Shown: piece by piece, positions 33,021-52,933 of the stretch
Layout: each line of letters opens with the position of its first letter
How positions within the stretch are numbered: position 1 is the first letter of the stretch
Assembly (NCBI GenBank): GCA_027024025.1
Contig: JALVTT010000157.1
Span: 128-64,127 of the forward strand
Reading direction: 5' to 3'
Length of the DNA: 64,000 nt
From: Sedimenticola sp.
GTDB taxonomy: Bacteria > Pseudomonadota > Gammaproteobacteria > Chromatiales > Chromatiaceae
The notes under the pieces: generated by a model
The model's input: only the letters and a program-made list of their open reading frames with translations
The model's database searches: none
What the model was told of the DNA's origin: nothing
Made by a program: the position numbers and the translations under genes

Positions 33021-33872
33021 ATGTCACTCGCCACCACCTACTGCCGCGCCGCGCTCGGCATCGAGGCCCCGCTGGTCACCGTCGAGACCCATCTGGCCAA
33101 CGGGCTGCCGGCCTTCAGCATCGTCGGCCTGCCCGAGAAGGCCGTGCAGGAATCACGCGACCGGGTGCGCTCCGCCCTGGTCAACAGCGGCTTCGAATTT
33201 CCCGCCCGCCGCATCACCGTCAACCTGGCGCCGGCCGACATCCCCAAACAGGGCGCGCGCTTCGACCTGGCGATCGCCATCGGCATCCTGGCCGCCAGCG
33301 CCCAGCTCCCCGACGCGCCACTGGCCGGGCTCGAACTGATCGGCGAGCTGACCCTCTCCGGACGGGTGCGGCCGGTGCACGGAGTGCTGCCGGTGGCCGT
33401 GGCCGCCCGCCAGGCCGGGCACAGTCTGGCCCTGGCGCGGGCCAACGCGGCCGAGGCCGCCCTGGTCGGCGGGCTGGAGATCCTGCCGCTGGACGGCCTG
33501 CTGCAGCTGTGCGCCCATCTCACCGGCCGGGAACGCATCGCGCCCTGGACGGACAACCCCGATACCGGGAACCGGCCGCAACTCCAAGCCGACCTGGCCG
33601 ATGTGCGCGGCCAGGCCCAGGCGCGGCGCGCTCTGGAGATCGCCGCCGCGGGACGCCACAATCTGCTGATGCAGGGCCCGCCCGGCACCGGCAAGTCCAT
33701 GCTCGCCGCGCGCCTGCCCGGCATCCTGCCGCCGATGAGCGAGGCCGAGGCCATGGACACCGCCGCCATCCACTCGGTGGCCGGCCTGGCGGTGGACCCG
33801 GCGCGCTGGCGCGAGCGCCCCTTCCGCAGTCCCCATCACACCTGTTCCGGCGTCGCCCTGGTCGGCGGCAGC
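33021..33872 (+). pseudogene. comM: comM (yifB) Mg-chelatase-like ATPase, 5' part (284 codons), interrupted by the transposon
   Basis: Starts MSLATTY..IVGLPEKAVQESRDRVRSAL, with the Walker A motif GPPGTGKSMLA. The ComM-like sequence ends at ..RSPHHTCSGVALVGGS, exactly at the transposon end. Confidence 0.9.
33868..33872. repeat. Target-site duplication, left copy (GCAGC)
   Basis: An identical pentamer directly abuts the other transposon terminus at 57594-57598. Confidence 0.85.
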
Positions 33873-33955: not shown

Positions 33956-35704
33956 ATGTCGTTTCGTCGGATCGCGACGATCCGTCGCCTGATCAATCTA
34001 ATCCCCAAGGAGAAAAGGAATTTTGCCGCATGGTGGTACGGTCGCCTAATCCCAAACGACAGGGAACGATCTCAACCCAAGATCGAGGTTTTGTTCCGGG
34101 AGGTAGATTCCGAGGGGAAGGCGCTGGGCAAAACGAAGATCTATCCGGTCAATATCGCCCTGCTCGGACAGGTCCCACTCGGGTCAATCTGGCGCGCAAA
34201 GCGAAACGTGGGGAACATCAAATTGACGCGCCGGGCGTTCAAGGTGAATTTCTCACCACAGGGGTGGGACACATTGCAGTCATTGCATAAAACTGAATCA
34301 GACCGTTACCTGATTCCACCCTTTTCCCATCCCCTCCTTCGAGGAGTCAACGCGCCCCTTATGGATTCATGGACAATACGGTTCAAGCTGGCTACCGGAG
34401 GGTTCCTGATTATCCCGGCCATCGAATATTTTGTTCGCGCCTACGGACTCTCCGGCGAGATCCACCGGATTCTGCTCACCTATTCTTGGAATGAAGCACT
34501 CAAACGCCTATTCGGAGATCACCAACCTCCTGTGGCAAAGAAAGAGAATGGCCGATGGATCGTTCACCCCGGCCCCTACATGCAGCAGAATGACACTCCA
34601 TTTCTCGCACACCTTCTCCACGACCAAAATACCCGCCGCCTGACGAAGAAGCTGCATGCCCAAGCGGAGACCGCCCATAACGGAAAATACCATTTGAGGG
34701 TCGAACCATGGCACCGGAACATCGGGTTGATCGAAGTGCTCGGTAAGCCTCTACCGGACAACGGCTTCCTCGGCCTTCGTATCTCAGGAATCGAGCTTCC
34801 CAAGCACCCACCAATCGACGTTATCCGAATCCATAAAGAACAGCCAGATGAAATAACCAATGGAGACAAGACCGGTGGGAACACCGTCATGCTGCAAACG
34901 ATCGCTTCCAGTCCGGACATGAAAATGGCGGATGATCAACCACCTGACCATGGCCTAGGGCACTTCGAGCTTACCACTCCCGCGTTCAAATGGCTCGGTG
35001 AACCAGGTGAAATCCGCAACGTCGTCCGTGAGGACGGAAAAATAGGACGGCCATCGACCTTGAAGTCGAACATCGTGGATACCGTGTCGGCTGGAGATCC
35101 GGCGGGTAGCCCCAAAGGCATCAGGAAGGTCGTCTCCCACACCCCGCTGCTCCTAGAGTCCATGGGGACACTGAAAGATATGTGGGACGCCTTCCATCAT
35201 TTGCAGAAACTGCATCCTGAAACGATCCTGGATGTTGGCTACGTGACGTGGGGGAAAGAGGTCCGCTGCGGAACCGAACCGGAGCTGTGCCCATTGCCGC
35301 GCCCAGTAGCTAACAGGAAGAATAAGAAAGGATTTTGGTATTTCATTGACAAAAACACGCCACGCGGTTTATTGCTGATATGGGTTAGGACAGCCGATTG
35401 CGAGGCTGTCATCGTGGAGATCCAGCGACGCACCGATCCAGCCAATCCAGAAAAAGAAAAAGAATCCTTCAAGGGATTGGCCATCCGCGTGAACGGCGAC
35501 CTCGGAAAGGTGCTGGACTGGCTGGAGCGTCTGGCGGCCAATATCGTCGAGAGCAAGGGCGTTTACACAAAGGCAATGCTGAGCTCGTGTCCCACGCTGG
35601 CCCGAACCTTCAAGCACGCGAAATCCCAGGGCGACACAAAAGCTGGAGAACATACGGCTTGGCGAGCGCTTGCAAAAGTGGGCTGCATGGAGAATAGAAA
35701 ATGA
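33956..35704 (+). CDS. Uncharacterised 582-aa protein, possibly a TnsE-like target-selection protein (weak, from memory)
   Basis: It starts 83 bp inside the left end and has an ATGA overlap with the nuclease gene. No catalytic motif was recognised. Local patterns (IIPAIEYFVRAYG, FLGLRISGIEL, EAVIVEIQRR...VLDWLERLAANIVESKG) resemble my recollection of Tn7 TnsE. Confidence 0.3.
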   Translation: MSFRRIATIRRLINLIPKEKRNFAAWWYGRLIPNDRERSQPKIEVLFREVDSEGKALGKTKIYPVNIALLGQVPLGSIWRAKRNVGNIKLTRRAFKVNFSPQGWDTLQSLHKTESDRYLIPPFSHPLLRGVNAPLMDSWTIRFKLATGGFLIIPAIEYFVRAYGLSGEIHRILLTYSWNEALKRLFGDHQPPVAKKENGRWIVHPGPYMQQNDTPFLAHLLHDQNTRRLTKKLHAQAETAHNGKYHLRVEPWHRNIGLIEVLGKPLPDNGFLGLRISGIELPKHPPIDVIRIHKEQPDEITNGDKTGGNTVMLQTIASSPDMKMADDQPPDHGLGHFELTTPAFKWLGEPGEIRNVVREDGKIGRPSTLKSNIVDTVSAGDPAGSPKGIRKVVSHTPLLLESMGTLKDMWDAFHHLQKLHPETILDVGYVTWGKEVRCGTEPELCPLPRPVANRKNKKGFWYFIDKNTPRGLLLIWVRTADCEAVIVEIQRRTDPANPEKEKESFKGLAIRVNGDLGKVLDWLERLAANIVESKGVYTKAMLSSCPTLARTFKHAKSQGDTKAGEHTAWRALAKVGCMENRK

Positions 35705-36201
35705 CCCTATGCACCATGCGATGGCCTGTGGCCGCTACTCTGGCGGTTCTACTTGTCCTTGTATGCCTGACCGCTGACGCTTCGCAGACGGTCATAGCAA
35801 GAATCGTCGGCATCATTGACGGGGACACCGTGAAGGCGCTCATCGACGGACACCAACAATGGAAGGTTCGCCTCGCGGAAATCGACACGCCGGAAAAACG
35901 GCAACCCTGGGGCAAGCGAGCAAGGCAGGCGCTGGCCGCCAAGATTTTCAGGAAGAAAGTGCGGATCGTCGTCACCGGCACCGACCGTTACGGACGTCGC
36001 ATTGGGAAAATCTACCTTGGAGACCGAGACATCAACCGGGAAATGGTGCGCGAGGGGCATGCCTGGGCGTACCGGAAATACCTGAGGGATCGCAGTCTGC
36101 TCGATGACGAGGCAGAAGCCCGGCGCGAGCGTCGCGGGTTGTGGTCGCTCCCGGAATCACAGCAGGTTCCACCGTGGAAGTGGCGACGGAGGCAACGCTA
36201 G
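35701..36201 (+). CDS. Secreted staphylococcal-nuclease-like thermonuclease
   Basis: Signal peptide, followed by the SNase catalytic pattern IIDGDT, RLAEIDTPE, DRYGRRIG and EMVREGHAWAY. Confidence 0.85.
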   Translation: MTLCTMRWPVAATLAVLLVLVCLTADASQTVIARIVGIIDGDTVKALIDGHQQWKVRLAEIDTPEKRQPWGKRARQALAAKIFRKKVRIVVTGTDRYGRRIGKIYLGDRDINREMVREGHAWAYRKYLRDRSLLDDEAEARRERRGLWSLPESQQVPPWKWRRRQR

Positions 36202-36913: not shown

Positions 36914-37170
36914 TGAGGATGCGCAAACGGGAACCCTATGAACGGCTGGCCGACGGAACCATCCGTTTTCACGACAATGACTACGAGTCATGGAAGTCGC
37001 TGTTCCAGCGAGCCGGGTACGACATCGACAAGATCACCACCGAAGAGCAATACCGGGAAGCCCACTCCAAGGTTGGGGGACATGCTCATGACGGAATTGG
37101 TGGGTCGGGCAGCCAAGGGGGAGCCGGATGCCATCGCTATATTGAAGCCCTTCCTGGCCGGAGATTTTAG
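36913..37170 (+). CDS. Hypothetical small protein; only the first roughly 55 codons look like coding sequence
   Basis: MRMRKREPYERLADGTIRFHDNDYESWKSLFQRAGYDIDKITTEEQYREAH, after which the tail is Gly-rich. It overlaps the next ORF in another frame, so a frameshift is possible. Confidence 0.25.
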   Translation: MRMRKREPYERLADGTIRFHDNDYESWKSLFQRAGYDIDKITTEEQYREAHSKVGGHAHDGIGGSGSQGGAGCHRYIEALPGRRF

Positions 37171-37375
37171 CGAAATGCGGGCGGCGGCACGGCGCGCCAC
37201 GTTCGAGGCCCTGCCTGGCGGGCGGAGTCAACTCGAAGGGGAGCTGGTGGACATGCTTTTCTCGCCGGAACCCCTCAGCCCACGGTGCGACGAACTCCTC
37301 CAACGCCTGAACCACCGGGCGGACCTAAAGGTCGTTGCCGTGGGCAAGCGCGGCGAGGAAGCCAAGGACGCATGA
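37082..37375 (+). CDS. Hypothetical small protein (97 aa)
   Basis: The composition from MLMTELVGRAAKGEPDAIAILKP looks like coding sequence. A T6 run follows the stop codon. Confidence 0.3.
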   Translation: MLMTELVGRAAKGEPDAIAILKPFLAGDFSEMRAAARRATFEALPGGRSQLEGELVDMLFSPEPLSPRCDELLQRLNHRADLKVVAVGKRGEEAKDA

Positions 37376-37534
37376 CCCCCGGGCGGTTTTTTGGATTCAG
37401 GATTTCGCGATCACGGGGCGCATCCGCTTAACCCACGCCGGGATCGAGCACTTCAATCTTATACCAACTGCCACCCTCAGCTCGAACACAGGCTTGGCAT
37501 GACGAAGTTGAGTAATGCACACCCAACATTTTTG

Positions 37535-37561
37535 GGCCATGATCTGGTTGAACGGTAGGAC
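37535..37561 (+). repeat. 27-bp direct repeat, copy 2, 48 nt upstream of the helicase-nuclease start
   Basis: GGCCATGATCTGGTTGAACGGTAGGAC. Confidence 0.8.
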
Positions 37562-37608
37562 TAGAAATTGGCCTTGTGAATTCAGGCTCACAATGAAGAA
37601 AGAAAGCT

Positions 37609-40524
37609 ATGGCGCAGGTTGTGACTAATAACACTTTTAGCACCAATGCCAACCCCAGCCAGCTTGAAGCCATCAAGACCACTGAAGGCCCGTTGCTCAT
37701 CATCGCTGGTCCTGGATCAGGAAAGACCTTCACTCTGGTTGAGCGAATCGTTTATCTGATCACCGAGAAAAAAGCCGCGCCAGAATCGCTTTTTGTCGTC
37801 ACCTTCACAGATAAGGCCGCGCAGGAACTAACCACTCGCGTGTCCAACCGACTTTTGGAGTTGGGCATAAAGTTCAACCTCCATGAGATGTATCTCGGCA
37901 CATTTCACTCTATCTGTCTGCGCCTGCTTGAGGAATACCGGGAGTTTACCCGCCTCAAGCGTAGCTTCACCCTGATGGACCAATTCGATCAACAATATTT
38001 TCTCTACCAGAACCTGAACGACTACTACGATATTGCCGATGTGGAGCACGTCATAGGCGACCTGCAAGGTAGCCGGTGGAATCAGTCTGCCAACCTTCTC
38101 AAATGGCTTAACAAGGCCACGGAAGAAGCGCTTGTTCCCGAAGAGCTGCTCAAGGCGAAGGATGAGGCCGTACAAGTGCTGGGCGCCTGTTTGCACCTGT
38201 ACCACAAACAGCTAGAAGCACATAACGCCCTGGATTTTTCTGGCATCCAGAATGAGGCGCTGTGCCTACTGCGTGACAACCCGCAGGTGCTGGAAGAAGT
38301 ACGAAGCAAGATCACCTATCTGATGGTCGACGAATACCAGGACACCAACACCATCCAGGAGATGATCCTCAAGCTACTTTGTGCTGACCAGCCCAACCTC
38401 TGCGTGGTGGGCGACGACGACCAGGGCCTTTACCGATTTCGCGGTGCTTCCATACGAAACATTCTGACCTTTCCGGATCAGTTCGAAGATGGCCAGTGCA
38501 AACAAGTCAGACTGACCACCAACTACCGTTCTCATCCTGACATTATCCACTTCTACAACCGCTGGATGAATGACCAAAACTGGGAGTATGGGGGTAATAC
38601 ATTCCGCTTTGACAAACTCATAGAAGAAAACCAAGCGGCGACCTTCCCAGAAACCGCCACGGTCATAAAAGTATCAGCTGAAGAACACGGTATTTGGGCT
38701 GATGAAGTAGAAGCCTTCCTGCGCGACATGAAAAGCAGGGGTGCCATCACCAACTGGAATCAGGTAGCTTTCCTCTTCAGGTCGGTGAAACATAAAGATG
38801 CAGTGGCCCTGGCCAAGACGCTGGAGGAACGAGGTATTCCCGTTTATTCTCCTCGCTCCAACATGTACTTCGAGCGTGAAGAAGTTAGGCTGATGATCGG
38901 TGCGCTGATCTTCCTTTTCCCGCAGTTCCCGGAAGTTCGCAAATGGGATAGCTCGGCCTATCTCCCGATCTGGGATTACTATGACCAAGAGTGTTTTGCG
39001 CCATTTGCAGAGGAGCTGCGCAAACCAGAAAATGAGGAGCTGCTGAAGTGGGCGCGTGTCCGGGCTAAAGAGCACCTGACGCTCACCGAGAGCACCAACT
39101 ATGGGTTTTCGGGACTATTCTATGAGCTGCTGCGCTTCCCCCTGTTTAGCCGCTTTCTGGATGAAGACGAGGAAGGCCAACTGATCCATGAGCGGCCCGC
39201 GCGTAACCTGGCGCAGTTTTCCAACCTTTTGGTGAAATACGAGTACCTTCACCATATTTCGGTGCTCAACCCACTCTATCTGGAAAACAACATAAAGTCG
39301 TTTTTCAACAGCTTTTTACGTTTTCTATATGAGGGTGGTATCGATGAGTATGAGGACGACAGCGAATATGCCCCTTCCGGATGTGTCTCTTTTCTCACCA
39401 TCCACCAGTCCAAGGGCCTAGAGTTTCCCGTGGTTATGGTTGGGTCGCTTTATGCCGTGCCACGCAAACAGCACACAGAACTGGATGAAGTGCTGGAGCG
39501 AGACTACCTTTCCCGGCCACCCTTCGAGCCGCTGGAACGGACCAAGTTCTACGATTTCTGGCGGCTCTACTACACCGCCTTCTCCAGGGCACAGAACCTG
39601 CTGGCGCTTACCTGTCAGGAAAAGAGTGGCCGAGGCCGCACACCATCAAAGTATTTCGCGCCCTACTACGAGGATCTACCTTCCTGGCGGGATCCGGCCT
39701 TTGACCCTGATCTGCTGACGCTGGAACAGGTCAAGGAAGTGAACTTGAAGAAGGAGTACTCCTTCACCTCGCACCTGACGCTGTTCGAGAACTGCCCCCA
39801 GCAGTACCGCTTCTTTAAGGAGCTGGAGTTCACTCCTGTGCGGACCAGCCCCATCCTCTTCGGCACTCTGGTGCACCAAACCATCGAAGACATCCATAAG
39901 ACTGTGCTGCGTGGAGAACAGGAGAAGCTATCGGAAGAGCAGATAGAGACTTGGTTTAACACCAACTACCAGTACCTGACCCAACGGGAGCGGGTCTATC
40001 TGGCCGAACCCATCCAAAAGGTGGCGCTTGACCACGTGCTGCGGTACTACTGGCGGCAGAATGGTGATTGGTCAAAAATACTGGAAGCTGAGGTGGATAT
40101 TTCTCTGGTGAAGGACGAGTATATACTCAAAGGCAGCGTGGACCTGATCACCGGCGAAAACGGCACGGTGGAGATCGTAGATTTCAAGTCCGAAAAAAAG
40201 CCCGATCTGGAGAAGGAGCGGGAAAAGGTGTGGCGCTATCAGCGCCAGCTGGAGGTGTACGCTCACCTGGTGGAAGAGCGCACCGGCCAGAAGGTGACCA
40301 AGACCCACCTTTACTATACCAGCGAGGAAGGCGGGAACCCCTACATCACCTTCCCCAAGGACGACTCTTCTATCGCCAGCACCATCGCCACCTTCGACCA
40401 AGTAGTTCACCGAATTGAACAGCAAGATTTCAGCATGACCGATCGCCCGACTAAACTCTGTAAAGAATGTGACATGCACGCATACTGCGATACCAAGAAC
40501 TGGAAATTCAGGAAGACTTCATGA
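37609..40524 (+). CDS. UvrD/PcrA-type SF1A helicase fused to a C-terminal Cas4/AddB-like PD-(D/E)XK Fe-S nuclease
   Basis: Helicase motifs: AGPGSGKTF, VVTFTDKAA, MVDEYQDTN, VVGDDDQGLYRFRGA, TTNYRS, TIHQSKGLEFP and YTAFSRA. Nuclease motifs: FENCPQQY, GSVDLI, VEIVDFKSEK, QLEVYAHL and CKECDMHAYC. Confidence 0.85.
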   Translation: MAQVVTNNTFSTNANPSQLEAIKTTEGPLLIIAGPGSGKTFTLVERIVYLITEKKAAPESLFVVTFTDKAAQELTTRVSNRLLELGIKFNLHEMYLGTFHSICLRLLEEYREFTRLKRSFTLMDQFDQQYFLYQNLNDYYDIADVEHVIGDLQGSRWNQSANLLKWLNKATEEALVPEELLKAKDEAVQVLGACLHLYHKQLEAHNALDFSGIQNEALCLLRDNPQVLEEVRSKITYLMVDEYQDTNTIQEMILKLLCADQPNLCVVGDDDQGLYRFRGASIRNILTFPDQFEDGQCKQVRLTTNYRSHPDIIHFYNRWMNDQNWEYGGNTFRFDKLIEENQAATFPETATVIKVSAEEHGIWADEVEAFLRDMKSRGAITNWNQVAFLFRSVKHKDAVALAKTLEERGIPVYSPRSNMYFEREEVRLMIGALIFLFPQFPEVRKWDSSAYLPIWDYYDQECFAPFAEELRKPENEELLKWARVRAKEHLTLTESTNYGFSGLFYELLRFPLFSRFLDEDEEGQLIHERPARNLAQFSNLLVKYEYLHHISVLNPLYLENNIKSFFNSFLRFLYEGGIDEYEDDSEYAPSGCVSFLTIHQSKGLEFPVVMVGSLYAVPRKQHTELDEVLERDYLSRPPFEPLERTKFYDFWRLYYTAFSRAQNLLALTCQEKSGRGRTPSKYFAPYYEDLPSWRDPAFDPDLLTLEQVKEVNLKKEYSFTSHLTLFENCPQQYRFFKELEFTPVRTSPILFGTLVHQTIEDIHKTVLRGEQEKLSEEQIETWFNTNYQYLTQRERVYLAEPIQKVALDHVLRYYWRQNGDWSKILEAEVDISLVKDEYILKGSVDLITGENGTVEIVDFKSEKKPDLEKEREKVWRYQRQLEVYAHLVEERTGQKVTKTHLYYTSEEGGNPYITFPKDDSSIASTIATFDQVVHRIEQQDFSMTDRPTKLCKECDMHAYCDTKNWKFRKTS

Positions 40525-42326
40525 TCAAGAAAAAGAAAGAAATGAACTTGGGAGAAAACCAAGGGCAATCGACCGAAGTGGACAAGTACGAGTTCGAACC
40601 CATTCAGGGGTACCCAATGCTGCACTGGAAAGGAAAGCGGCCGTTCCAGTCAACGCAGTATTACCCGGCGCAGCTCAAGGAAGTATATGGCCCAGAGGTT
40701 AAAGGGTGGCGGAACAAGATTTACTGGGGGGATAACCTTCAGGTGATGGGTCATTTGTTGAAGGAATATCGAGGAAAAGTTGATCTTGTTTATATCGACC
40801 CCCCGTATGACTCTAAAGCAGAATACAAGAAATCTATTTCCGCAAAAGGAAAGAAAACGACATCTGACCAGTCTTCGTTTGAGGAAATGCAGTATACGGA
40901 CATTTGGACTAATGACTCATACCTTCAATTTATGTATGAGAGGCTTATTATTGTTCGTGAATTATTGTCGCCTACGGGGAGCATTTATGTTCATTGTGAT
41001 TGGCATAAGAATCACTATATACGCTGCATTCTTGATGAGATATTTGGACCCAACCATTTCAGAAATGAGATCGCATGGCATTATTTTGGATTTAAGAGAT
41101 CTACTGCCAGAAAGTTTCCGCAGAAACATGACACTATATTGTCGTACGTTAAATCTGATGAATATACGTGGAACGTACAGTACAGACCGCATAGTGAAGA
41201 ATATGTAAAAAGGTTCAAGGAAGATGAGAACGGTCGACTATATAGAGATGATGTTAATCCTACTGGAGGAGGATCTCGTATAATATACTTAGACGAAGTG
41301 CCAGGAGATATTATTGACTCAACGTGGGATGACATTCCACCTGTTAACCCTGTAGCAAAAGAACGCCAGAATTATCCAACCCAAAAGCCGGAGGCGTTAA
41401 TTGAGAGGATAGTTGCCGCTTCAACTAACCCAGGCGATCTGGTATTTGACTCTTTTATGGGGGCGGGAACAACCCAAGCCGTCGCCATGAAACTTGGCCG
41501 TCGCTTCATCGGTGCGGACATCAACCTTGGGGCCATACAGACTACCACCAAGCGTCTAATTAAGGTGGCTGAGGAGCTAAAAAACAATCAAAACGACCTT
41601 CTTGATGCAGAAGAACAACCCACCTACTACACCGGGTTTGAAGTCTACAATGTCAACCACTACGACATCTTCCGCAGCCCGGTAGAAGCGAAGGAACTAC
41701 TCATCGAAGCCCTGGAGATCCAAAAGTTGGAGACCAGCAATATCTACGATGGCGAGAAGGATGGCCGCATGGTAAAGATCATGCCGGTCAATCGCATTGC
41801 GACCAAGGCCGATCTGAACGACCTTATCGCCAACTTGGACTACAAGGCCTTCGAGCGCCGCCAAGCCGAACATCCCACCCGGCCGGTAGAGAAGCTACTC
41901 ATCGTCTGCATGGGCCACGAGCCTGACTTAGCAGCGACGCTGCAGAACGAGGTGCCGTTCCCTCTGGATATTGAGGTGGTGGACATCCTGCGTGACAAGT
42001 CCAACCTGGAGTTCAAGCGCGATGCCGAAGCCAAAGTGATGGCCAAAAATGGGAAACTGATCATCGAACAGTTCTACCCCATGAACCTGCTACAGAAGCT
42101 CAGCTTGATGAAGGAGAATGTGGAAGACTGGCGCGAGCTCGTAGAATCAGTGATGGTGGACTGGAACTACGACGGGGCGGTACTGGAGCCGGCCGTCGTG
42201 GATCTACCCGACAAGAATGAGCTGGTCAAAGGAGAATACGAGATTCCCGAAGATGCCGGCACCATCATGGTAAAGATCACTGACCTGCTTTCAGAATCCC
42301 TGGAAGTGGAGGTTCAATATGGCTAA
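40521..42326 (+). CDS. mod: Type III-like DNA methyltransferase (Mod; beta-class N6A/N4C)
   Basis: Motif IV (DLVYIDPPYDS) precedes motif I (FDSFMGAGTTQAVAMKLGRRFIGADIN), with a variable region between them. ATGA overlap with the helicase gene. Confidence 0.85.
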   Translation: MIKKKKEMNLGENQGQSTEVDKYEFEPIQGYPMLHWKGKRPFQSTQYYPAQLKEVYGPEVKGWRNKIYWGDNLQVMGHLLKEYRGKVDLVYIDPPYDSKAEYKKSISAKGKKTTSDQSSFEEMQYTDIWTNDSYLQFMYERLIIVRELLSPTGSIYVHCDWHKNHYIRCILDEIFGPNHFRNEIAWHYFGFKRSTARKFPQKHDTILSYVKSDEYTWNVQYRPHSEEYVKRFKEDENGRLYRDDVNPTGGGSRIIYLDEVPGDIIDSTWDDIPPVNPVAKERQNYPTQKPEALIERIVAASTNPGDLVFDSFMGAGTTQAVAMKLGRRFIGADINLGAIQTTTKRLIKVAEELKNNQNDLLDAEEQPTYYTGFEVYNVNHYDIFRSPVEAKELLIEALEIQKLETSNIYDGEKDGRMVKIMPVNRIATKADLNDLIANLDYKAFERRQAEHPTRPVEKLLIVCMGHEPDLAATLQNEVPFPLDIEVVDILRDKSNLEFKRDAEAKVMAKNGKLIIEQFYPMNLLQKLSLMKENVEDWRELVESVMVDWNYDGAVLEPAVVDLPDKNELVKGEYEIPEDAGTIMVKITDLLSESLEVEVQYG

Positions 42327-44940
42327 GCGCACCACCAGCGGGCTGGATCTCAACTTCACCTTCTACGAGCACCTGCGGGCCTTCTATCTGGAGAACAAGG
42401 GCACCATCCGCAAGCACTACCGCGAGCTTTCGAAGAAGTTCCTGGATTTCAATGACCCGTCGGACGGCACTGCCTTTTTGCGCCTCCCCCAGTTCGAGGC
42501 GTTGGAGATGTACGTCTTTCTGAAAGAGTTTCTGGATAATCAGCCGGTGCACCGGCTGTTTCGTGACTGGGCGGACAAAACCGGAAAATTTGCTGGCCGT
42601 AAGGACATCGCCCTGCTGGAAGAGCTGAACAAGGACGACTATGAGGCGCTGTTCAAGCGTATGAAGAAACAGGCCCGCCTCTACCCCAACTACATCTTTG
42701 CGCTGACCATGGGCACAGGCAAGACCATTCTCATGGCCACCTGCATCTTCTACGAGTTCATCCTGGCCAACAAATTCCCCAAGGATAAGAAGTACTGCCA
42801 CAATGCCCTGGTGTTCGCCCCTGATCGAACCGTTCTGCAATCGCTGAAAGAGATTCAGACTTTCGACATGGCCAAGGTAGTGCCGCCCGAGTATGTGAAC
42901 TTTCTCACCCAGCACATCCAGTTCCACTTTCTGGAAGAGGCGGGCACCACCCTCAACACCCTGGATCGGTCGCGCTTCAACCTCATCATCTCGAACACCC
43001 AAAAGATTATTCTCAAGAAGCAGCGCAAAGAAAAGACCGCCGCTGACGAGCTGTTCGGCAAGGGGAAGCCCACCTTCGATGCCAAGAGCGTGTATGCCGC
43101 CAATGAAGATCTCTACGGCTTCGATATACCGGAAGACGAACAAGACCTGACCACCAATCAACGCTTCGACAAGTTGCGACGCTTGGAACAGTTGGGCATA
43201 TACATCGACGAAGCGCACCATGCGTTCGGCAAGAACCTAGCCAAAGACACTGGCAGTGTGAAAGACACTCGCAAAACCAGCCTTCGCAATACGGTCGATC
43301 TTTTGGCCAAGAGCCTCAAGGCCTCTGGTACTCATGTGGTGGCCTGCTTCAACTACACCGGCACGCCCTACGTGGGGAGGGAAGTTTTGCCGGAGGTGGT
43401 CTATGCCTATGGCCTGAAAGAGGCCATCGACAAGAGCTTTCTGAAAAAGGTTGTGCTCCACGGATACACCACCACCCGCGACAAAGAGTTTGTGGCCCTA
43501 GCCATCGATAACTTTGTAAAAGAGACCAAGGGTCTTCGTCCCGAGGGGATGTTGCCCAAACTGGCCTTCTTTGCGGCCACCATCGAAGAGCTGCAACAGC
43601 AGTTGCGGCCTGCGGTAGAAGAGGCGCTGACCAAGCATGGTATCCCGCTAGATCGCATACTGGTGAACGTGGGAGACCCGAAGCTCACCACCAACGACGA
43701 CATCCGGGAGTTCAACCTACTTGATTCTCCACGTTCGGAAAAGCAGTTCATTCTGCTGGTGAACAAAGGCCGCGAGGGCTGGAACTGCCGCTCGCTCTTT
43801 GGCGTTGGGCTTTTCCGTGAACCGAAATCCAAGGTATTTGTCTTGCAGGCCACCATGCGCTGCCTGCGCCAGATCGGTGACATCCAGCATACCGGACAGG
43901 TTTATCTTAGCCATTCCAACCTTGAGATTCTCAACGACGAGCTGCAACAAAACTTCCGCATCAGTGCCGAAGAGTTTGAGAACAGTGGTACCAACAAAAT
44001 TCGCGTGGAGGTGCGGCCGGTGCCACCGCCCCGAAAGATCAAACTCAAGCGCATTCATCGTAAATTCAAGCTGGAAGAGAAGAAGCCAACCAGGGGACTC
44101 AGTCTGGAGCTGGATAAGGCGGATACCGAACAGTACAAGTTACTTCACTATACGCAGGAAGGACTGGACCCAGCAGATGCTGCCAGAAAGACGCGTGGGC
44201 AACCAGAAGATCTAACGGCACTACGTGAGCGCCGCGTTTTCAGTGAGATTACACTGGTGGCAGAAATCTCCCGTTATCTGAATAAGCCCTGTCTGATGAT
44301 TCAGGAAGTGTTGGCTGGCACCGAAGAAGGCATAGACAAGATTCTTGAATATATAAACAGGTTCAACGAGCTACTCTATGATTGGATCATTCCGCGACTC
44401 TTCCATGCGCTCTACAAGATCACGCCAGAAGAAGAGACGGAGGAGTACGAGATCGAGCTCATCAAAGTCCCCGAGAAAGGTTACTATGAGGTATCTGCTG
44501 ACAAAGACAAGATTGTTAGAATGGACGACCCTAGCCTAAAGTCCCTACAGAAGGATCGCAGTTTTCACCTGGACACCTACTGTTTCGACTCCGGATCAGA
44601 GAACCAACTGTTCTGGGATCTCCTGCGCGAGCAGCGGGTAAAGAAAATCTACTTCACCGGGATGCTCACCCACGGCCAGTCTGACTTCTTCATTCAGTAC
44701 ATAGACCCGGACTCGCGGACGGTGCGCAGCTACTACCCAGACTTCTTGTTCTTGCGCGAAGAGCCGGATGGGACGGAAAAGTACGTGATAGTCGAAGTCA
44801 AAGCCGACAACCAGATCGACGACGCCGTCGTCCAGGCCAAGAAGGACTTCGCCCAACAGATTGCGGTGGCCAGCGGCATGGAGTACCGGATCATCAAGTC
44901 CACGGATGCGGACAAGCGAAACTACCGCGTGCTGATGTGA
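42319..44940 (+). CDS. res: Type III restriction enzyme Res subunit (SF2 helicase plus C-terminal PD-(D/E)XK)
   Basis: Contains LTMGTGKTILMA (motif I), YIDEAHH (DEAH) and a C-terminal YYPDFLFL...YVIVEVKAD. It overlaps mod by 8 nt. Confidence 0.85.
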   Translation: MAKRTTSGLDLNFTFYEHLRAFYLENKGTIRKHYRELSKKFLDFNDPSDGTAFLRLPQFEALEMYVFLKEFLDNQPVHRLFRDWADKTGKFAGRKDIALLEELNKDDYEALFKRMKKQARLYPNYIFALTMGTGKTILMATCIFYEFILANKFPKDKKYCHNALVFAPDRTVLQSLKEIQTFDMAKVVPPEYVNFLTQHIQFHFLEEAGTTLNTLDRSRFNLIISNTQKIILKKQRKEKTAADELFGKGKPTFDAKSVYAANEDLYGFDIPEDEQDLTTNQRFDKLRRLEQLGIYIDEAHHAFGKNLAKDTGSVKDTRKTSLRNTVDLLAKSLKASGTHVVACFNYTGTPYVGREVLPEVVYAYGLKEAIDKSFLKKVVLHGYTTTRDKEFVALAIDNFVKETKGLRPEGMLPKLAFFAATIEELQQQLRPAVEEALTKHGIPLDRILVNVGDPKLTTNDDIREFNLLDSPRSEKQFILLVNKGREGWNCRSLFGVGLFREPKSKVFVLQATMRCLRQIGDIQHTGQVYLSHSNLEILNDELQQNFRISAEEFENSGTNKIRVEVRPVPPPRKIKLKRIHRKFKLEEKKPTRGLSLELDKADTEQYKLLHYTQEGLDPADAARKTRGQPEDLTALRERRVFSEITLVAEISRYLNKPCLMIQEVLAGTEEGIDKILEYINRFNELLYDWIIPRLFHALYKITPEEETEEYEIELIKVPEKGYYEVSADKDKIVRMDDPSLKSLQKDRSFHLDTYCFDSGSENQLFWDLLREQRVKKIYFTGMLTHGQSDFFIQYIDPDSRTVRSYYPDFLFLREEPDGTEKYVIVEVKADNQIDDAVVQAKKDFAQQIAVASGMEYRIIKSTDADKRNYRVLM

Positions 44941-45139: not shown

Positions 45140-46744
45140 TCAAGGCGTATCCCGTTTCCCCCGCAGCCGGCAACGCATAGTCGCTGGCCGACCACTATCG
45201 AAATATGGGAGCTCGATCTCCTCGTCGATGGTCGTACAGTAGTTCTCAGCAAACAGTTGCAAGTGCGCCGCATCCCGAGCCACATCAGAGTCGGCGGGGA
45301 GGTGCTGAAGAATGGCGTCACTCACAAACATGATGAACTTGCTGCGAGCTCGGGTTAAGGTCACGTTGAATCGTCTCGGGTTCAGAATGAATGCCTCTTC
45401 TGCGGCGACGAAATCGCGGTCAGCGACAACGTAGCTTGCTATCATCAGGTCCCGCTCCTGGCCCTGGAACCTGTCTACTGTATCCACGAATGGCGGTGGA
45501 TCCATGGGCATCCCAGCTGCGTCTACCAGGAGGTTTTTGATGGTAGACATCTGCGCCCGGTGAGGCGTCACGATGCCTAGATGCTCTGACCAGAACTGCT
45601 GGTCACCGGGGCCGTTGCCGTCCTGCTCAAGGATGCGTCGGTACAGCAGGGCAAGAGCCGTAACCATCTGGGCTTCAAACGGATTTGAAAGCGTCGACAT
45701 GTGAACGCCATAGCTGATGACGACCACCGGTATCTCCGGGTCGAGGATCCTTAGAAATAGATCACTCCATGGCAGGTTTGCCGGCCACCCATCCGGCGGG
45801 CTACCTATTGCAGGCAGAGCAATGCCGAGCCTTCGTTCTGGGAAAAACGCCTCGTATCCTTCGCTATAGAACCGCTCCTTGGGCCATCCAGAAATCTCCG
45901 TGTTTGTCCGGTAATTGCGATCCAGGGCAACAGGATCTTTGCCGTGGGTTTCCTGCATGTACGAGAAGATGCAATCGAAAAGCCCCTGAACGCTGTCTCG
46001 CATTTCGAATCCGTAGATCGGACCAAGCTGCTTGTGATCTCCAGCGAGGATTACATGCCCGTCTTCACGCAGAAGCAGGAAATAGGCTGCCGCGTATGCC
46101 ACCGGAACCTGCGATGCTTCGTCGATCACCAGGAGATCGAACCATCTGGCGACTGGAGTCCCATCACCCGAAACAACCTCTGCGAGTCGCCCAAGTTGCG
46201 TCCAGGTGCCACCAACCACCACACATTCTGTCCGCTCATGCATGGCTCCAGCCAGAACGCGTGCTGCCTGTGCCGTGCGAACAACGTCTTCGATGCATTC
46301 ATCGAGAGGAGGCTTCGCCGATTCGTTGCGCAGGCGCGCAATGCGCACATTGCCGGGCAGCTCGCCCAGGACAGAGGCGCGTTGGCCCAGCAAGTCCGCA
46401 ACTTCTCTCAGGACGTTGTCGATGGCGTTGTAATTGCTCGCGCCGACTCCGACCGTGATCGGTTCACCGCTCTGCCATGCGTTTTCTATCCAACCCAAAA
46501 TGACGCCAGCCAGCACGGTTGTCTTTCCGGTCCCCGGTGGACCCCACAGCAATGACAACCGGTCTGTGAACGAGCTATGAAAGGCGTCCGCTTGGCGGGG
46601 ATTGAAGGAGTGCTTCTGGTACTGTGCAACCTGGTTCAGAAGGTCCTCGACCTCTCCGTGGCTACGGGTGACCTGCAACTGCCCGGGCTCATACAGGAAG
46701 CCATGAGCGGGTTCTGTTCGGGGATATTGTACGCGCCTTGCCAT
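45140..46744 (-). CDS. Upf1/Dna2-like SF1B helicase (AAA_11/AAA_12 type)
   Basis: Contains WGPPGTGKTT, LVIDEASQV, LAGDHKQLGPI, DRNYRTN, IVTPHRAQ, VDRFQGQERD and FNVTLTRAR. ATG 46744 lies 2 nt after the upstream stop codon, behind a GGAGGAGGG Shine-Dalgarno sequence. Confidence 0.85.
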   Translation of the reverse strand: MARRVQYPRTEPAHGFLYEPGQLQVTRSHGEVEDLLNQVAQYQKHSFNPRQADAFHSSFTDRLSLLWGPPGTGKTTVLAGVILGWIENAWQSGEPITVGVGASNYNAIDNVLREVADLLGQRASVLGELPGNVRIARLRNESAKPPLDECIEDVVRTAQAARVLAGAMHERTECVVVGGTWTQLGRLAEVVSGDGTPVARWFDLLVIDEASQVPVAYAAAYFLLLREDGHVILAGDHKQLGPIYGFEMRDSVQGLFDCIFSYMQETHGKDPVALDRNYRTNTEISGWPKERFYSEGYEAFFPERRLGIALPAIGSPPDGWPANLPWSDLFLRILDPEIPVVVISYGVHMSTLSNPFEAQMVTALALLYRRILEQDGNGPGDQQFWSEHLGIVTPHRAQMSTIKNLLVDAAGMPMDPPPFVDTVDRFQGQERDLMIASYVVADRDFVAAEEAFILNPRRFNVTLTRARSKFIMFVSDAILQHLPADSDVARDAAHLQLFAENYCTTIDEEIELPYFDSGRPATMRCRLRGKRDTP

Positions 46745-46746
46745 GA

Positions 46747-49453
46747 TCAAACCCTCCTCCTTCTTCTCCTTTGCATCGGGGGAGGGTTGCCACCAATGGC
46801 GCGCAGCGCTTGCTCTATCCTTCGGCTGGAGAAGTCCTGGTACAGCGGATCGAGAACCATCGGCTGATCCATATCAAGAATGCCCTCATCTTGAGCCAGC
46901 CTAAACAAACCACTATTAGATGGCCTGAGCACCAGAAACGGGGGCTCATGCGTCGCTACCAAACGCACCATCTCAACCTGAAGTACTTTTCCAAGTGAAG
47001 CATTCACCATCCACTCTTCATCCAACCCGTATCCATCCAACAGATCCTTTGCTTCGTCGAACGATGATAGACCCAAGTGTATTCGCCACGGAACGTCGAG
47101 TTCGATGTCGGAGTCTTCATTGGATAATGCCAATAGAAAGTCCCCTTCATTTATCCTGGCATCTCGTGATGTGTGAGCAAACGTAAAGGCAAGGAGTTCA
47201 GCGCCAACATAACGGGAATCCGATCTGCGTACCCCTTTGATACAGTCCTCGTACCCCCCCCCCGATGGCTGGCTGAATCCCGCGAATTGAAAAGAAACGA
47301 GCTTCCCGCTCGTCAACGGGAAGTGCCCGGCGCTGTCGGTTCTCAATCTCCTGGGTTGCTACATTCAGCTTCTCGAAGGCGATGAGGCTGCGAGCACGCT
47401 CAGGGACCTTCATCTGCTTTGGTGGAGCAGAGCTGAACGGAGACTTTCGAAGCATAAGCCGGTCACGGTAATGCTCCCGTAGTCGCCTCACGATATGCTG
47501 CAGCGCTCGGAGATGGACGCGTGTTGCGTGCTTGACCCCCTCATAGAGCTCGTCTCGCGTGTATGGCCGCCACCGCGATGGTTGACCCGGAAACCTTGGG
47601 TCAAAATGTCTCAGAAAAATCTTGTCCTGCCATAACTCGTAAGCCCGCTCAAAGGGGATCTGGTCGCTCATGGGAGTGCTGAAGCCGAACGGCAGTTGGA
47701 ACCGGTAAGGGTCACCATTCTCGTTGCGAACGGGAAAGAGTGTGTTGGCTGTCTCGAACAGGGAATAATCATGCGCAATTGGAAGGCCAAGAAGCAGTCG
47801 GACGACATCCTTCACGATAGTACCCGGCTGAGACTTGAACAGCTCTGGGTCAGGCAAGAGATCGTCCGGTGGAAAGAGACGAATCAGCAGCTCTATCAGG
47901 TCCACGACCTCCGGGTGGTTCATGTGTCTCTCGAACATCCGCCGAAGCTGGCGGACCTCGAGCATGTCCCAGAGAAAGATATGGGATGAAAGGAGCTTGT
48001 TAAGCTCATTTCCTTTCTTACCCTGCCGTTTTAGGTGCTTGTTCTCCTCTCCTAATTCTTTGTTCTTCTCTGATACTTCTTCAAGCCACCGAGAGACGAG
48101 GGTGACGAACTCCACCAGGCGGGCCCGCTCTGTATCCGGGTTCATTGCGTCGACGCGGTCCACGACAAACACATGTTCTTCCGTTTGGGGTGGATCCCCC
48201 TGACTGCGGCCCGGTGGGAAGTACACTCGGGCGGCGCCCATGGCGAACGTAATGCCGGAACCGGGATCGAAGTGGACCGTAATGAAGATGTTCTGGTCGC
48301 TCCATGCAGGCATAAGTGAGCATTTGCGCCCCTCAATAACGACGGGCTCGTTGGTGTGGAGTGCTTCGGCTCGCACCAACAGAGCTGGACGATCAGCGCG
48401 AAGCTGGTGACTTGACGCTTCTGCGGCCTGCCACTCCGTTGTGCTGCCTCTGATGGCCTCCCTCAAGCTCTGCGTGGTCGCGATTCCGTTCTGGCGCAGA
48501 AGCTCGGCTTGTCCCTGATTGAGCCACGGCAGCCGGGAGAGATGGTCACAGTTCTCCGCCTCCTGCTTGCAGTATCGGACGTAGTCACATAGCTGGCACT
48601 TTGGCCCCACGTGCCAAGAGGCCTCTTCCGGTCTCTGCTCGAGAACCCGGAGTAGTCGTTCCTCGAAGAACTGCTTGACGTGGACCTGGTACACCTCGTA
48701 GGGGACCGGCACGAGGGTGTCCTGTAGGGCTGAAGTAACAGGGTCACTATCTCCTCTTGCTTCGTATTCACGAACAAGATTCCGGAAGGCGTTAGCATCA
48801 TGACTACCAGGCCAAATGAACCCCTCTGCGCTCACAGCGTATCGATCCGACAGGCCCTGTTCCGCCAATGCCGCCGCCAGCGAGAGCGCGTAGTAGGTGA
48901 CTTCCGTAAAATGGCGAAGGGAAGGCTCGGCCGCCATTTTCACGTCAATCACATGTAGCTCGAACTCCGGCACAGGATCCGGATCGCCGATAAGCGGATG
49001 TCCCGTGCCGCCGGCTCGAATCCATATGATGTCGGGACGGGCTCTTACGGTCTCCAAACCGTAGGTGTCGTATGCCTCTTGGAGACCCGGTGTGATATTT
49101 GACGGAACCTCGAACTCAGCTTCGATGATGGCAAATGGCGGGCTCTCACGCCGCAAGATTTCGAACAGGTTCTCGACCTTACCGAATGGCTTCCGACCAA
49201 CAAGCTCATCGACCTCTTCCTTCTCGACATACTCGACGGCGTCCGGCGGTGAAACGTCGATAAGATCCTGGTACTTGTCCGCCTCCCACCGACGCCCGGC
49301 CGCCTTGATCAGTTCGATACCGGGTCGCTTGTAGGTATCGGCTTCGATGCAGAGAGAGTCTTTTTCGGCGTCGGATGCCAGCCGAAATCGAAGAAAGCGG
49401 TCACAATCAAACTTGAATGTGAGCGCGAGCGTGCCTTTGTCCAGCCGGGGCAT
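46747..49453 (-). CDS. Large Cas4-like PD-(D/E)XK Fe-S nuclease with an RNase-H-like middle region (TM0106-family-like). As sequenced it is split into two frames (49453..47198 and 47346..46747) by a frameshift in a G10 tract
   Basis: Contains FKFDCDRF, PDIIWIR, ELHVIDVKM, TYYALSL and CQLCDYVRYC (a Cas4-type Cys4 arrangement), then an HhH-like LNQGQAELLRQNGI and IFITVHFDPGSG / HIFLWDMLEV. Both frames look like coding sequence on their respective sides of the tract. Confidence 0.7.
47254..47263 (-). repeat. Homopolymeric tract, G10 on the coding strand (C10 on the plus strand)
   Basis: Counted directly in gtaccccccccccgatgg. It lies within the 149-nt overlap of the two nuclease reading frames. 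Confidence 0.95.
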
Positions 49454-49454
49454 G

Positions 49455-51641: not shown

Positions 51642-52933
51642 GATCCACCTACCTTCGCAGCTGGCAAGCTTTCCGTGCGTAGATCAATCAAACCTTGGTC
51701 AAGACCGTTCCTAGGACGCATAATCTTAAGAGGTAGTGGAACCCAATACTCCTTCCCTCTACTACGAACTACCAGCCCTCCATCCAGTACGTCGGTCAAT
51801 TCTGTTGTCTTGGGCATTGGCTGCCCATGAAAATACCTCATTGCGACCCTTGCCCACTTCCTCCGGAACTCCGGCGTATCCTCCGGATTCTTCATCATGG
51901 CGATGAGCTGGCGTTCCAACCTTGCCTTGCTGCGCTCCTTCGCCCGCTTCTCGTCCGTCTGCGGCACCAGGCTCACTCCCTGCGCTTCATTGATGAAATT
52001 CACGAACCCCGTGATATTCGCCTTCTGCCCCGGCTTGTCCAGCAGGTAGGCGTCGAGATCTGGCTGGACGGGTACGCACCCCTCTGCCCGGAGCACCAGA
52101 TCCGCCGCCGCCGAGAGCACCATGCGGACGCTCCGCAGCGAGGTTTTCCCTTCCTCCAAACGAGCCATCAAACGCTCGCGGTAAGCATGCCACAACGCTC
52201 CTCCGGCGGTCGAGGCGTCAATTCTCTCCCCCAGCTCCCTGATACGCCGCCGTTCGGAATCCTCCTCCCGCGCCTTTTCATCCACCTTCAGCCGTCCGGA
52301 TTGCTCCATCCACTGGATCGCCAGCCTTACCCGACGCAACCCCTCCGCATGAAAGCGCGCCACCAGTTCCTTGTAGTCCGGGATGCAGCCCCATTCGGCG
52401 TCCATCTCCTGGAAGAAGGCAAGGTACTTATTGATCCGGATGGCCGCCACGTTCGCGCCCCGCCGCGCCTCCAGCCAGCGCCCGAACACCCCAAATTCCT
52501 CGGCCAGGCCATTCCCAAGGCCCGCCTGACAGATCGCAATCCGCTTCTCCAGCAAATCCTTCCAGTAGCAATCCTCGCAACGGTCTCCCCGGCCTGCTGG
52601 CATGGGGCTTCCGCATTTCAAGCAGGAACGGATTCCCTCATCCAAGCAAGGCCGACACAACAACCGTCCATCATCCGCCTTTATCAGCCGCCGATGTCTG
52701 CCGCACGCAGGGCAGGTAGCGTGATCGGCCCGTTGACATACGGGACAGACCGGCTCATCAATGCCCAGCCGCAACGCACGCGCCAAGTGCCGAGACATGC
52801 GCCCACAGCGCGGGCATGGCTCCGGCTCCCGAAACCAGGGAACACAGGCGTTGCATACGGGACCTTCCGGCCTGCGCAGCCCCGTGGGCCGCCCCTTGCG
52901 ACCGCACCGGATACATGCCTCATCCGGCCTCAT
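51638..52933 (-). CDS. Cys-rich multi-Zn-ribbon protein of unknown function, in the fifth position of the tns operon (TniE-like by position only)
   Basis: At least 7 CxxC pairs lie in the first roughly 130 aa, followed by a helical C-terminal half. ATGA overlaps occur with tniQ upstream (start taken at ATG 52933) and with the methyltransferase downstream. Confidence 0.6.
   Translation of the reverse strand: MRPDEACIRCGRKGRPTGLRRPEGPVCNACVPWFREPEPCPRCGRMSRHLARALRLGIDEPVCPVCQRADHATCPACGRHRRLIKADDGRLLCRPCLDEGIRSCLKCGSPMPAGRGDRCEDCYWKDLLEKRIAICQAGLGNGLAEEFGVFGRWLEARRGANVAAIRINKYLAFFQEMDAEWGCIPDYKELVARFHAEGLRRVRLAIQWMEQSGRLKVDEKAREEDSERRRIRELGERIDASTAGGALWHAYRERLMARLEEGKTSLRSVRMVLSAAADLVLRAEGCVPVQPDLDAYLLDKPGQKANITGFVNFINEAQGVSLVPQTDEKRAKERSKARLERQLIAMMKNPEDTPEFRRKWARVAMRYFHGQPMPKTTELTDVLDGGLVVRSRGKEYWVPLPLKIMRPRNGLDQGLIDLRTESLPAAKVGGS

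Follow-up and report, generated by a model that had tools for sequence, protein, structure and literature searches.

Does a gene for a DNA helicase fused to a nuclease, placed immediately ahead of what reads as a restriction-modification (R-M) pair of Type III, belong to the restriction system, or is it only its neighbor? We examined this question for a locus of Sedimenticola sp. (Gammaproteobacteria; Chromatiaceae) on contig JALVTT010000157.1 of assembly GCA_027024025.1 (positions 128 to 64,127 of the forward strand), a stretch of 64,000 nucleotides (nt) that we refer to as the window. Here, three consecutive genes—hereafter the triad—encode a UvrD-type helicase joined to a Cas4/RecB-type nuclease, a Mod methyltransferase and a Res-like protein. 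By surveying the neighborhoods of their homologs, we found that the triad behaves as a single unit, in inheritance and in exchange, across phyla and mobile elements.

Three coupled genes form one operon

A sequence-only reading of the window had delineated three plus-strand open reading frames (ORFs), an ATGA stop/start overlap coupling the first two, and a set of diagnostic motifs in all three proteins. The coordinates were confirmed to the base (Table 1), the ATGA was confirmed by direct reading, and every quoted motif could be located. At the mod/res junction, which also overlaps, a Shine–Dalgarno sequence (GGAGG, 42307–42311) lies 7 nt upstream of the res ATG. The non-coding leader of the operon is preceded by a T-run (cgggcggttttttgg) at the end of a 145-aa ORF and carries a purine-rich stretch (gaagaaagaaagc) immediately 5' of the helicase–nuclease ATG, while a promoter scan upstream of the operon found no consensus sigma-70 site. 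The three genes form one coupled operon. We also considered the 145-aa ORF (36938–37375) and the other flanking ORFs as a fourth component and rejected them, as they are not conserved with the triad in related loci.

The triad is conserved and co-inherited as a unit

We approached linkage from both ends of the operon. A helicase-seeded survey of contigs from one genome per species returned 80 loci, most of which, owing to the generic scan patterns, encoded ordinary UvrD/PcrA helicases and so provided a built-in control. All nine full-length fusions with at least 49% identity were followed directly, on the same strand, by Mod, and by Res where the contig allowed, whereas none of the roughly 60 plain UvrD loci had a Mod or Res. 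Exact-protein look-ups recovered the triad in four of four further cases (P. aeruginosa, Synechococcus elongatus PCC 11802, Desulfofustis limnaeus and Ferrovibrio), bringing the helicase-seeded orthologs at or above 49% identity with Mod downstream, and Res where the contig allowed, to 13/13. The more distant fusions, at 41–42% and 27–29% identity, had neither Mod nor Res alongside. Consequently, the expectation in the sequence-only reading that homologs of the helicase–nuclease would be preferentially linked to Mod and Res holds strongly for the clade at or above 49% identity but not beyond it. Two of the fusions at 41–42% identity, in Lachnospiraceae and Ruminococcus metagenome-assembled genomes (L009, 3776–8829; L010, 7448–12490), sit between genes for a DUF1351 protein and an RNase_T-family exonuclease, phage-like surroundings that suggest a link of this sister clade of the fusion to phage replication or recombination.

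The converse, Res-seeded survey of metagenome contigs recovered 80 loci at 55–83% identity to the window Res. In 64 of these, the helicase–nuclease, Mod and Res genes kept their order and orientation, and in a further 14 the contig stopped short of the helicase position. L121 and L131, the two helicase-less loci, show a Mod truncated by an rve-family insertion sequence (IS) and a Res joined in frame to an ORF with RTX repeats; we rejected them as genuine systems lacking the helicase, given that an IS insertion and a rearrangement or assembly chimera explain both. The helicase–nuclease is accordingly present in all 64 of the 64 intact loci sampled, and the third gene appears to be obligate from the Res side. 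Because this Res clade was not found intact without it, the helicase–nuclease probably belongs to the system as an integral partner and is not a dispensable extra.

Junctions and evolutionary distances were compared across 60 complete triads. The helicase–nuclease and mod genes overlap by 1, 4 or 17 nt in 38 of them, 27 being of the −4 ATGA type, while mod and res overlap by 8 or 11 nt in 54 and by 14 nt in one more. In some relatives, unrelated genes intervene between the helicase–nuclease gene and mod: a 246-aa ORF in the gut phage PV036426 (L171, 2454–10607), a PIN/helix-turn-helix (HTH) toxin–antitoxin-like pair on the opposite strand in S. elongatus PCC 11802 (L174, 7001–15723), and ORFs of 230–301 aa in L001, L008 and L013. 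Tight coupling of translation is thus frequent without being the rule in every relative. What seems to be a gap in L084, L091 and L113 is instead an N-terminal Mod extension of about 110 aa; with all gaps traced to extended Mods or unrelated inserted genes, we discarded the idea of a conserved fourth gene at this position. Pairwise distances were strongly correlated between the helicase–nuclease and Res (r = 0.98), between Mod and Res (0.83) and between the helicase–nuclease and Mod (0.81; Mantel p ≤ 0.001 each), indicating that the genes travel as one unit without shuffling. The motif conservation detailed below indicates that all five predicted catalytic centers—two ATPases, a methyltransferase and two PD-(D/E)xK nucleases—are under purifying selection. 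The "composite system" proposed by the earlier reading was thus an apt description: the three genes constitute a conserved, translationally coupled and co-inherited unit.

A helicase–nuclease fusion and a β-class methyltransferase

Profile matches identify the first protein as a superfamily 1A (SF1A) UvrD/PcrA-type helicase (aa ~13–660) joined to a C-terminal RecB/Cas4-family PD-(D/E)xK nuclease (aa 721–961). Pfam recovered UvrD-helicase (PF00580, 6e-75), UvrD_C, PDDEXK_1 (PF12705, 2e-23, over aa 721–961) and Cas_Cas4 (3e-5). The motifs GPGSGKT (aa 34–40), DEYQD (241–245), GDDDQ and QSKGLEF are ~100% conserved across 61 triads. The nuclease domain carries one-plus-three cysteines (C729 within NCPQQY at aa 728–733; C951, C954 and C960 within CKECDMHAYC at 951–960) together with the catalytic residues D845, D858-x-K860 and Q880..Y884, and these cysteines and the acidic and lysine residues are 97–100% conserved in the family. 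The UvrD/PcrA motifs and the RecB/Cas4-type nuclease with this cysteine pattern had been described from the sequence beforehand, and both were borne out. When the nuclease domain was searched alone, PADLOC Cas4 models matched at 1e-14 to 1e-8. A four-cysteine pattern is common to the AddB and Cas4 nuclease domains, and by analogy with it we predict that the protein binds an iron–sulfur (Fe-S) cluster. Among solved structures, sequence searches of the PDB placed PcrA and UvrD closest, with AdnB and AddA also matching. The NCBIfam pcrA, uvrD and addA matches were partial and far under their cut-offs (addA 185 bits against 708; recB, similarly, 120 against 696), and TIGR00372, the model for CRISPR-associated Cas4, scored 46.7 bits against a cut-off of 65.

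The second protein matches N6_N4_Mtase of Pfam (3e-52) as well as the PADLOC models MTase_III (4e-62) and MTase_II (4e-63), and its DPPY (aa 93–96) lies ahead of FMGAGT (312–317), placing motif IV before motif I. Its PDB sequence matches include EcoP15I Mod (4zcf_A, 8e-15) and a Helicobacter pylori Type III Mod (6k0w, 6e-16), and it is about 27–31% identical to the Mods encoded at six canonical Type III loci. These comparisons mark it as a bona fide β-class amino-methyltransferase related to Type III Mods. DPP and FxGxG are essentially invariant in the family; motif IV itself (40797–40808) reads DPPY here, with tyrosine at the fourth residue in just ~3% of 61 family Mods. The product may be either N6-methyladenine or N4-methylcytosine (m4C). 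Between the DPPY block and the TQKP/FMGAGT block, aa 181–280 form a hypervariable segment with column conservation of 0.31–0.45, as against 0.7–0.9 for most other regions. Such a block is the usual signature of diversifying R-M specificity, and from its position in β-class and Type III Mods we presume it to be the target-recognition domain.

The third gene encodes a divergent Type III-like Res

Sequence motifs in the third protein point to an N-terminal superfamily 2 (SF2) DEAH ATPase/translocase followed by a C-terminal PD-(D/E)xK nuclease. The ATPase motifs are MGTGKT (Walker A, aa 131–136), DEAHH (297–301), GREGWN (484–489) and QATMRCLR (510–517), and those of the nuclease are YPDF (806–809) and VEVK (825–828). 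All are 87–100% conserved in the family, with GxGKT, DEAH, PD and ExK essentially invariant and the nuclease motif PD..EVK invariant across 105 sequences. Pfam detected ResIII barely above threshold (23.2 bits; cut-off 22.5) and, over the nuclease (aa 790–860), Tn7_TnsA-like_N (PF08722, 7e-9).

Curated Type III models consistently failed to recognize this protein. The PADLOC REase_III models gave no match even at E ≤ 1, and RE_endonuc (PF19778) gave none either, the nuclease matching TnsA-like_N instead; a positive control, EcoP1I Res of phage P1, matched REase_III at E = 0, RE_endonuc at 4e-25 and ResIII at 66 bits. PDB searches with the single sequence and with a profile returned no relative, BLAST and phmmer detected no similarity to canonical Type III Res, and tblastn detected none to EcoP1I Res. 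Aligning an 88-member Res family against seven canonical Res proteins with hhalign yielded three colinear weak matches with a best probability of 3.9% and E values of 0.011 (GREGWN...QATMRCLR), 0.03 (DS..E...YPDF...EVK) and 0.15, which are suggestive at the motif level though statistically not convincing. An AlphaFold2 model built from the 105-sequence alignment reached a mean predicted local distance difference test score (pLDDT) of 80.2 and replaced a 34-homolog model (pLDDT 53). Foldseek ranked RadD first (7.6e-11) and EcoP15I Res second (4zcf_C, 1.8e-10; template modeling (TM) score 0.30/0.40), followed by the Type ISP enzyme LlaBIII and then by Snf2/Chd1 remodelers and HsdR. Taken together, the motifs and the predicted fold indicate a protein with the architecture, fold class and gene position of a Type III Res that nonetheless represents a divergent lineage failing the curated models. 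The sequence-only reading had spoken of a complete Type III R-M system, which claims too much: the β-class Mod, the adjacent res and the DEAH and PD..EVK motifs agree with it, and the missing REase_III and RE_endonuc matches of Res and its weak profile–profile similarity to canonical Res do not.

PGAP names homologs of this protein either "TnsA endonuclease N-terminal domain-containing protein" or "DEAD/DEAH box helicase family protein". We considered and rejected the first name as evidence for a TnsA of Tn7 transposition, since only the C-terminal PF08722 fold model is shared and the element carrying the triad has a TnsA-like gene of its own. As no Tn7 genes accompany the triad on other mobile elements, a transposition role for this "TnsA-like" protein is ruled out.

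Relation to known systems

The sequence-only reading had not recognized the arrangement as a named defense system. It has, however, been published: Hudaiberdiev et al. (2017, BMC Evol Biol, PMC5704561) found the UvrD–Cas4 fusion to be monophyletic, with Type III Mod and Res as its commonest neighborhood and further occurrences with Dcm/Vsr or alone. That study predicted a defense role and proposed an ancillary one, and neither named the triad nor tested it by experiment. Their module has the same UvrD-like SF1 helicase with a pfam12705 Cas4-like nuclease and the same Mod/Res neighbors, and we see no substantive difference from the window. Orthologs of 50–88% identity from many phyla share this context, which is consistent with the window fusion falling within their monophyletic clade. 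We found neither a name for the triad nor an experimental study of it in the open-access literature, and PADLOC 2.0, one of the tools that the earlier reading had proposed to run on the three proteins, holds no dedicated model for it. The locus is hence a further instance of a known but uncharacterized arrangement, and not a canonical Type III system. What our analysis adds is the exclusivity on the Res side, the figures for coupling and co-inheritance, the recognition of a Res lineage missed by curated models, and carriage by a Tn7-like element targeting comM.

In canonical Type III systems such as EcoP1I and EcoP15I, a β-class Mod likewise lies upstream of Res and is coupled to it, and Res consists of an SF2 DEAH ATPase and a C-terminal PD-(D/E)xK nuclease. 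The resemblance extends to sequence in Mod, which is related to that of EcoP15I, to predicted structure in Res, for which EcoP15I is the second-best match, and to the local Res motifs REGW(D/N)...Q..xR.LR and Y.PDF...E.K. The window differs in its third, apparently obligate gene and in a sequence-divergent Res whose nuclease is of the TnsA-like_N rather than the RE_endonuc type. The premise of the earlier reading that canonical Type III systems comprise two genes only is not absolute. Canonical Mod–Res pairs on plasmids (L164–L169) often have further genes beside them, which in Bacillus badius encode an HTH regulator and an AAA ATPase, in Aeromonas an AAA ATPase and a DUF4276 protein between mod and res, in Mycolicibacterium a DUF4391 protein and an AAA ATPase, and in L. 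plantarum a downstream DEAD/DEAH helicase. None of these pairs has a UvrD–Cas4 gene.

A second departure from the two-gene scheme is the group of BspHIV and Eco86II, m4C-forming Type III systems of three genes, for which an additional helicase-like gene 5' of mod is reported from over 500 genomes (Murray et al. 2021, PLoS One, PMC8259958). The active Eco86II preparation did not contain the helicase-like protein, and methylation and cleavage in vitro proceeded without it (PMC8259958). These systems resemble the window in placing an extra helicase-like gene directly 5' of mod and conserving it beside Mod and Res. By its published description, however, their extra protein is SF2-like with no nuclease motif, as opposed to the SF1 UvrD-type helicase with a Cas4/RecB nuclease described here, so that their third gene probably differs from ours; the window family, for its part, is confined to 3 of the 5426 complete genomes of E. 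coli.

AddAB, RecBCD and AdnAB share with the first protein the order of an SF1A UvrD-like motor followed by a RecB-family nuclease, and AdnB and AddA were among its PDB matches. They differ in that the window protein is a single polypeptide with no partner gene in the operon, scores far under the AddA and RecB cut-offs, and resides within an R-M operon on mobile DNA rather than at a repair locus. Gabija also pairs a nuclease with a UvrD-family helicase, and PADLOC GajB models match the window helicase at 1e-59; these matches nevertheless cover only the generic helicase core (aa ~11–430), no OLD/TOPRIM GajA is present in the neighborhood, and self/non-self discrimination in the window system would presumably rely on methylation. 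As regards a CRISPR Cas4 module, no cas genes were present among the island ORFs scanned, with CRISPR arrays not specifically searched for. Finally, the Cas4-family nuclease ACE1 boosts interference by a prokaryotic Argonaute (pAgo) in APACE1 (Bobadilla Ugarte et al. 2025, PMC12094033). This offers a parallel in that a Cas4-family nuclease is co-encoded with a primary DNA-targeting nuclease acting on invading DNA, but ACE1 has no helicase domain, partners an Argonaute, processes guides and works without a methylation component (PMC12094033). A paper on an S. elongatus Argonaute with Cas4-like and UvrD proteins was set aside as a precedent, since the two are separate genes there.

A proposed mechanism and its alternatives

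We consider it likely that the three proteins work together in methylation-based defense. As to how they do so, the account we prefer, to which we give roughly an even chance, is that the triad makes up a Type III R-M variant of three genes, complete in itself and mobilized as Tn7-like cargo, that first cuts and then shreds its target. Mod, probably as a dimer, would methylate host DNA on one strand at a short asymmetric motif. On incoming DNA, a Mod–Res complex would engage unmodified sites, the DEAH ATPase would move or slide along the DNA, and the C-terminal PD..EVK nuclease of Res would introduce a double-strand break. The 3'–5' UvrD-type helicase with its predicted Fe-S Cas4/RecB-type nuclease would then enter the new ends and processively unwind and degrade the DNA, serving as a built-in, single-chain equivalent of AddAB or RecBCD. 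The degradation after Res cleavage that the earlier reading had proposed is plausible, and it would make restriction irreversible and independent of the RecBCD of the host. Many phages inhibit host RecBCD.

Several considerations weigh against this cut-then-shred account. Each mechanistic step is drawn from domain homology, and we found no experiment on this family in the open-access literature. The correlation of 0.98 between the helicase–nuclease and Res reflects co-inheritance, not physical interaction, and the helicase–nuclease may act before Res rather than after it. Type III hallmarks comprise ATP-triggered sliding, cleavage ~25–27 bp from the site, a need for two inversely oriented unmethylated asymmetric sites, and hemimethylation of one strand. 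Because the window Res fails the curated Type III Res profiles and has no sequence relative in the PDB, Type III-style behavior—Mod2Res1 stoichiometry, two inverted sites and sliding—may not apply to it. Likewise, the dispensability in vitro of the extra Eco86II protein (PMC8259958) makes an accessory role for the third protein here a live possibility.

One alternative, which we hold only tentatively, is that the triad represents a distinct three-component restriction machine rather than a Type III system with an accessory, in which a dedicated Res lineage has the Fe-S helicase–nuclease as its obligate subunit or partner. Site recognition by Mod–Res would then feed directly into processive shredding of the target without RecBCD, with neither nuclease sufficient alone. 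The exclusive association of this Res clade with the helicase–nuclease, and the closeness of their distance correlation, are compatible with such a class.

Somewhat doubtful, in our assessment, is the view that Mod and Res alone are a full Type III-like enzyme and that the first gene is an optional booster, aiding clearance of some targets such as plasmids or serving several pathways. An ancillary role was indeed proposed for the fusion, which also occurs with Dcm/Vsr or alone (PMC5704561), and the precedents of Eco86II (PMC8259958) and of ACE1, which merely boosts pAgo interference (PMC12094033), point the same way, as do the unrelated genes sometimes found between the helicase–nuclease gene and mod (L001, L008, L013, S. 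elongatus and the phage). This view is nevertheless weakened by an effectively obligate association on the Res side (64/64 intact loci), by a predominance of ATGA-type coupling, and by a co-inheritance that is tighter between the helicase–nuclease and Res (r = 0.98) than between Mod and Res themselves (0.83).

A reversed order of action appears improbable. Here, the helicase–nuclease would come first, as a sensor or loader on the free ends or 3' tails that injected phage genomes present, or on conjugating single-stranded DNA, and would recruit or activate Mod–Res, or would itself be the main effector with Res serving mainly as a translocase. UvrD-family helicases do sense DNA ends or 3' tails in other defense systems, and PADLOC GajB models match the helicase core; the helicase–nuclease gene also comes first in the operon, and the Res-like protein is divergent from canonical Res. 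Against this, the invariance of PD..EVK in all 105 sequences indicates that Res is very probably a nuclease itself, and a Mod with a diversifying target-recognition domain favors classical, site-based discrimination of self from non-self.

We regard as more improbable still a role in host protection, whereby an AddAB-like repair or end-processing activity would mend self-inflicted breaks, or keep them in check, when the cassette enters an unmethylated genome, thus aiding establishment or restriction alleviation. On transposons, plasmids, phage and islands the cassette is highly mobile, so that establishment in naive hosts must be a recurrent problem, and the domain architecture of the helicase–nuclease parallels the repair enzymes AddA and AdnB. 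Yet the protein has neither a partner subunit nor a Chi-recognition module, falls far under the NCBIfam AddA/RecB cut-offs, and would usually find RecBCD or AddAB already in its hosts, while repair leaves the strict, clade-specific linkage to one Res lineage unexplained. The least credible explanation is that there is no functional connection, with an independent defense or repair gene lying beside an R-M pair or, in a variant, the third protein belonging to the Tn7-like transposition machinery: although the cargo island holds at least two other candidate defense modules and PGAP names the third protein after TnsA, order, overlaps and co-inheritance are kept from phylum to phylum and where an element lacks Tn7 genes, a separate TnsA-like gene is present in the transposon, and mere co-location is effectively excluded by the linkage data.

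A Tn7-like transposon in comM and its other cargo

The triad is carried as cargo by a Tn7-like transposon that coincides with a low-GC island. The element has imperfect terminal inverted ends, and its target site, GCAGC, is duplicated over 5 bp on either side (33868–33872 and 57594–57598). The insertion splits comM into halves at 33021–~33872 and ~57594–58255, at position 95 of the Mg_chelatase profile. The coordinates of the transposition genes, together with those of the triad, are collected in Table 1.

Table 1. Features of the triad and of the transposon that carries it (window positions)
Feature	Coordinates	Strand	Basis or remark
Leader, non-coding, upstream of the operon	37376–37608	+	sequence reading
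Helicase–nuclease gene	37609–40524	+	971 aa; ORF call
Nuclease domain of the helicase–nuclease	39769–40491	+	PDDEXK_1, aa 721–961
ATGA stop/start overlap, helicase–nuclease gene/mod	40521–40524	+	read from sequence
mod	40521–42326	+	601 aa; ORF call
Hypervariable segment of Mod, aa 181–280	41061–41360	+	column conservation, 61 family members
mod/res overlap, 8 nt, ATGGCTAA	42319–42326	+	read from sequence
Type III-like res	42319–44940	+	873 aa; ORF call
Tn7-like transposon, 23,721 bp, inserted in comM, triad as cargo	33873–57593		ends and duplication
442-aa protein, no family match	51638–52966	−	
TniQ gene	52930–54264	−	
TniB/TnsC ATPase gene	54000–54899	−	
TnsB-like gene (rve and Mu-transposase C)	54896–56773	−	
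TnsA-like gene	56763–57485	−	

Metagenome locus L094 has both the transposition genes and the triad in common with this element. The 442-aa protein encoded next to TniQ is conserved with the transposition module in L094 and has a weaker homolog in L124; this association suggests that it may be a second target selector.

Two further sets of genes share the island. Downstream of the triad, on the minus strand (45140–51641), a candidate second defense module encodes proteins of 728, 782, 199 and 536 aa. The 728-aa protein is a methyltransferase with weak PglX/HmaB-like PADLOC matches, the 782-aa protein has no match in Pfam or PADLOC, and the 536-aa protein is an SF1 helicase with AAA_11/AAA_12 domains that matches the N-terminus of DpdJ in PADLOC (5e-59). 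Five related loci (L094, L096, L112, L146 and L147) encode homologs of the SF1 helicase and of the 782-aa protein directly downstream of Res, only the last two of which also have a detected homolog of the methyltransferase, and in P. aeruginosa a 1319-aa AAA_11/AAA_12 helicase occupies the same position. The module is a recurrent, unnamed neighbor of the triad. On the other side, on the plus strand (33956–36201), the gene for a 582-aa protein that matches nothing in Pfam or PADLOC shares 4 nt with the gene for a 166-aa protein with a staphylococcal nuclease (SNase) domain (35701–36201); the two may constitute another two-gene cargo system, and SNase homologs are also found downstream of Res in L110 and L131.

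Distribution and implications

Beyond the window, the triad occurs on a conjugative Nitrosomonas eutropha plasmid, on Enterococcus plasmids (Res at 44% identity, with the helicase split into two ORFs), on a human-gut phage, and in a tRNA-Sec island of the three E. coli genomes counted above by blastn. Overall, thousands of protein clusters with the triad are distributed across Proteobacteria, Cyanobacteria, Bacteroidota, Acidobacteria and Firmicutes, and extend to plasmids, a phage and transposons. Since its Res is unseen by the PADLOC Type III models and bears a TnsA-like PGAP label, the triad is likely under-counted in censuses of defense systems.

If the helicase–nuclease does finish off the restricted DNA, the triad would amount to an R-M system equipped with a RecBCD substitute of its own, which would explain effective restriction against phages with RecBCD inhibitors or in hosts without RecBCD. 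The triad also offers a compact and testable model for the coupling of primary cleavage and secondary degradation in immunity.

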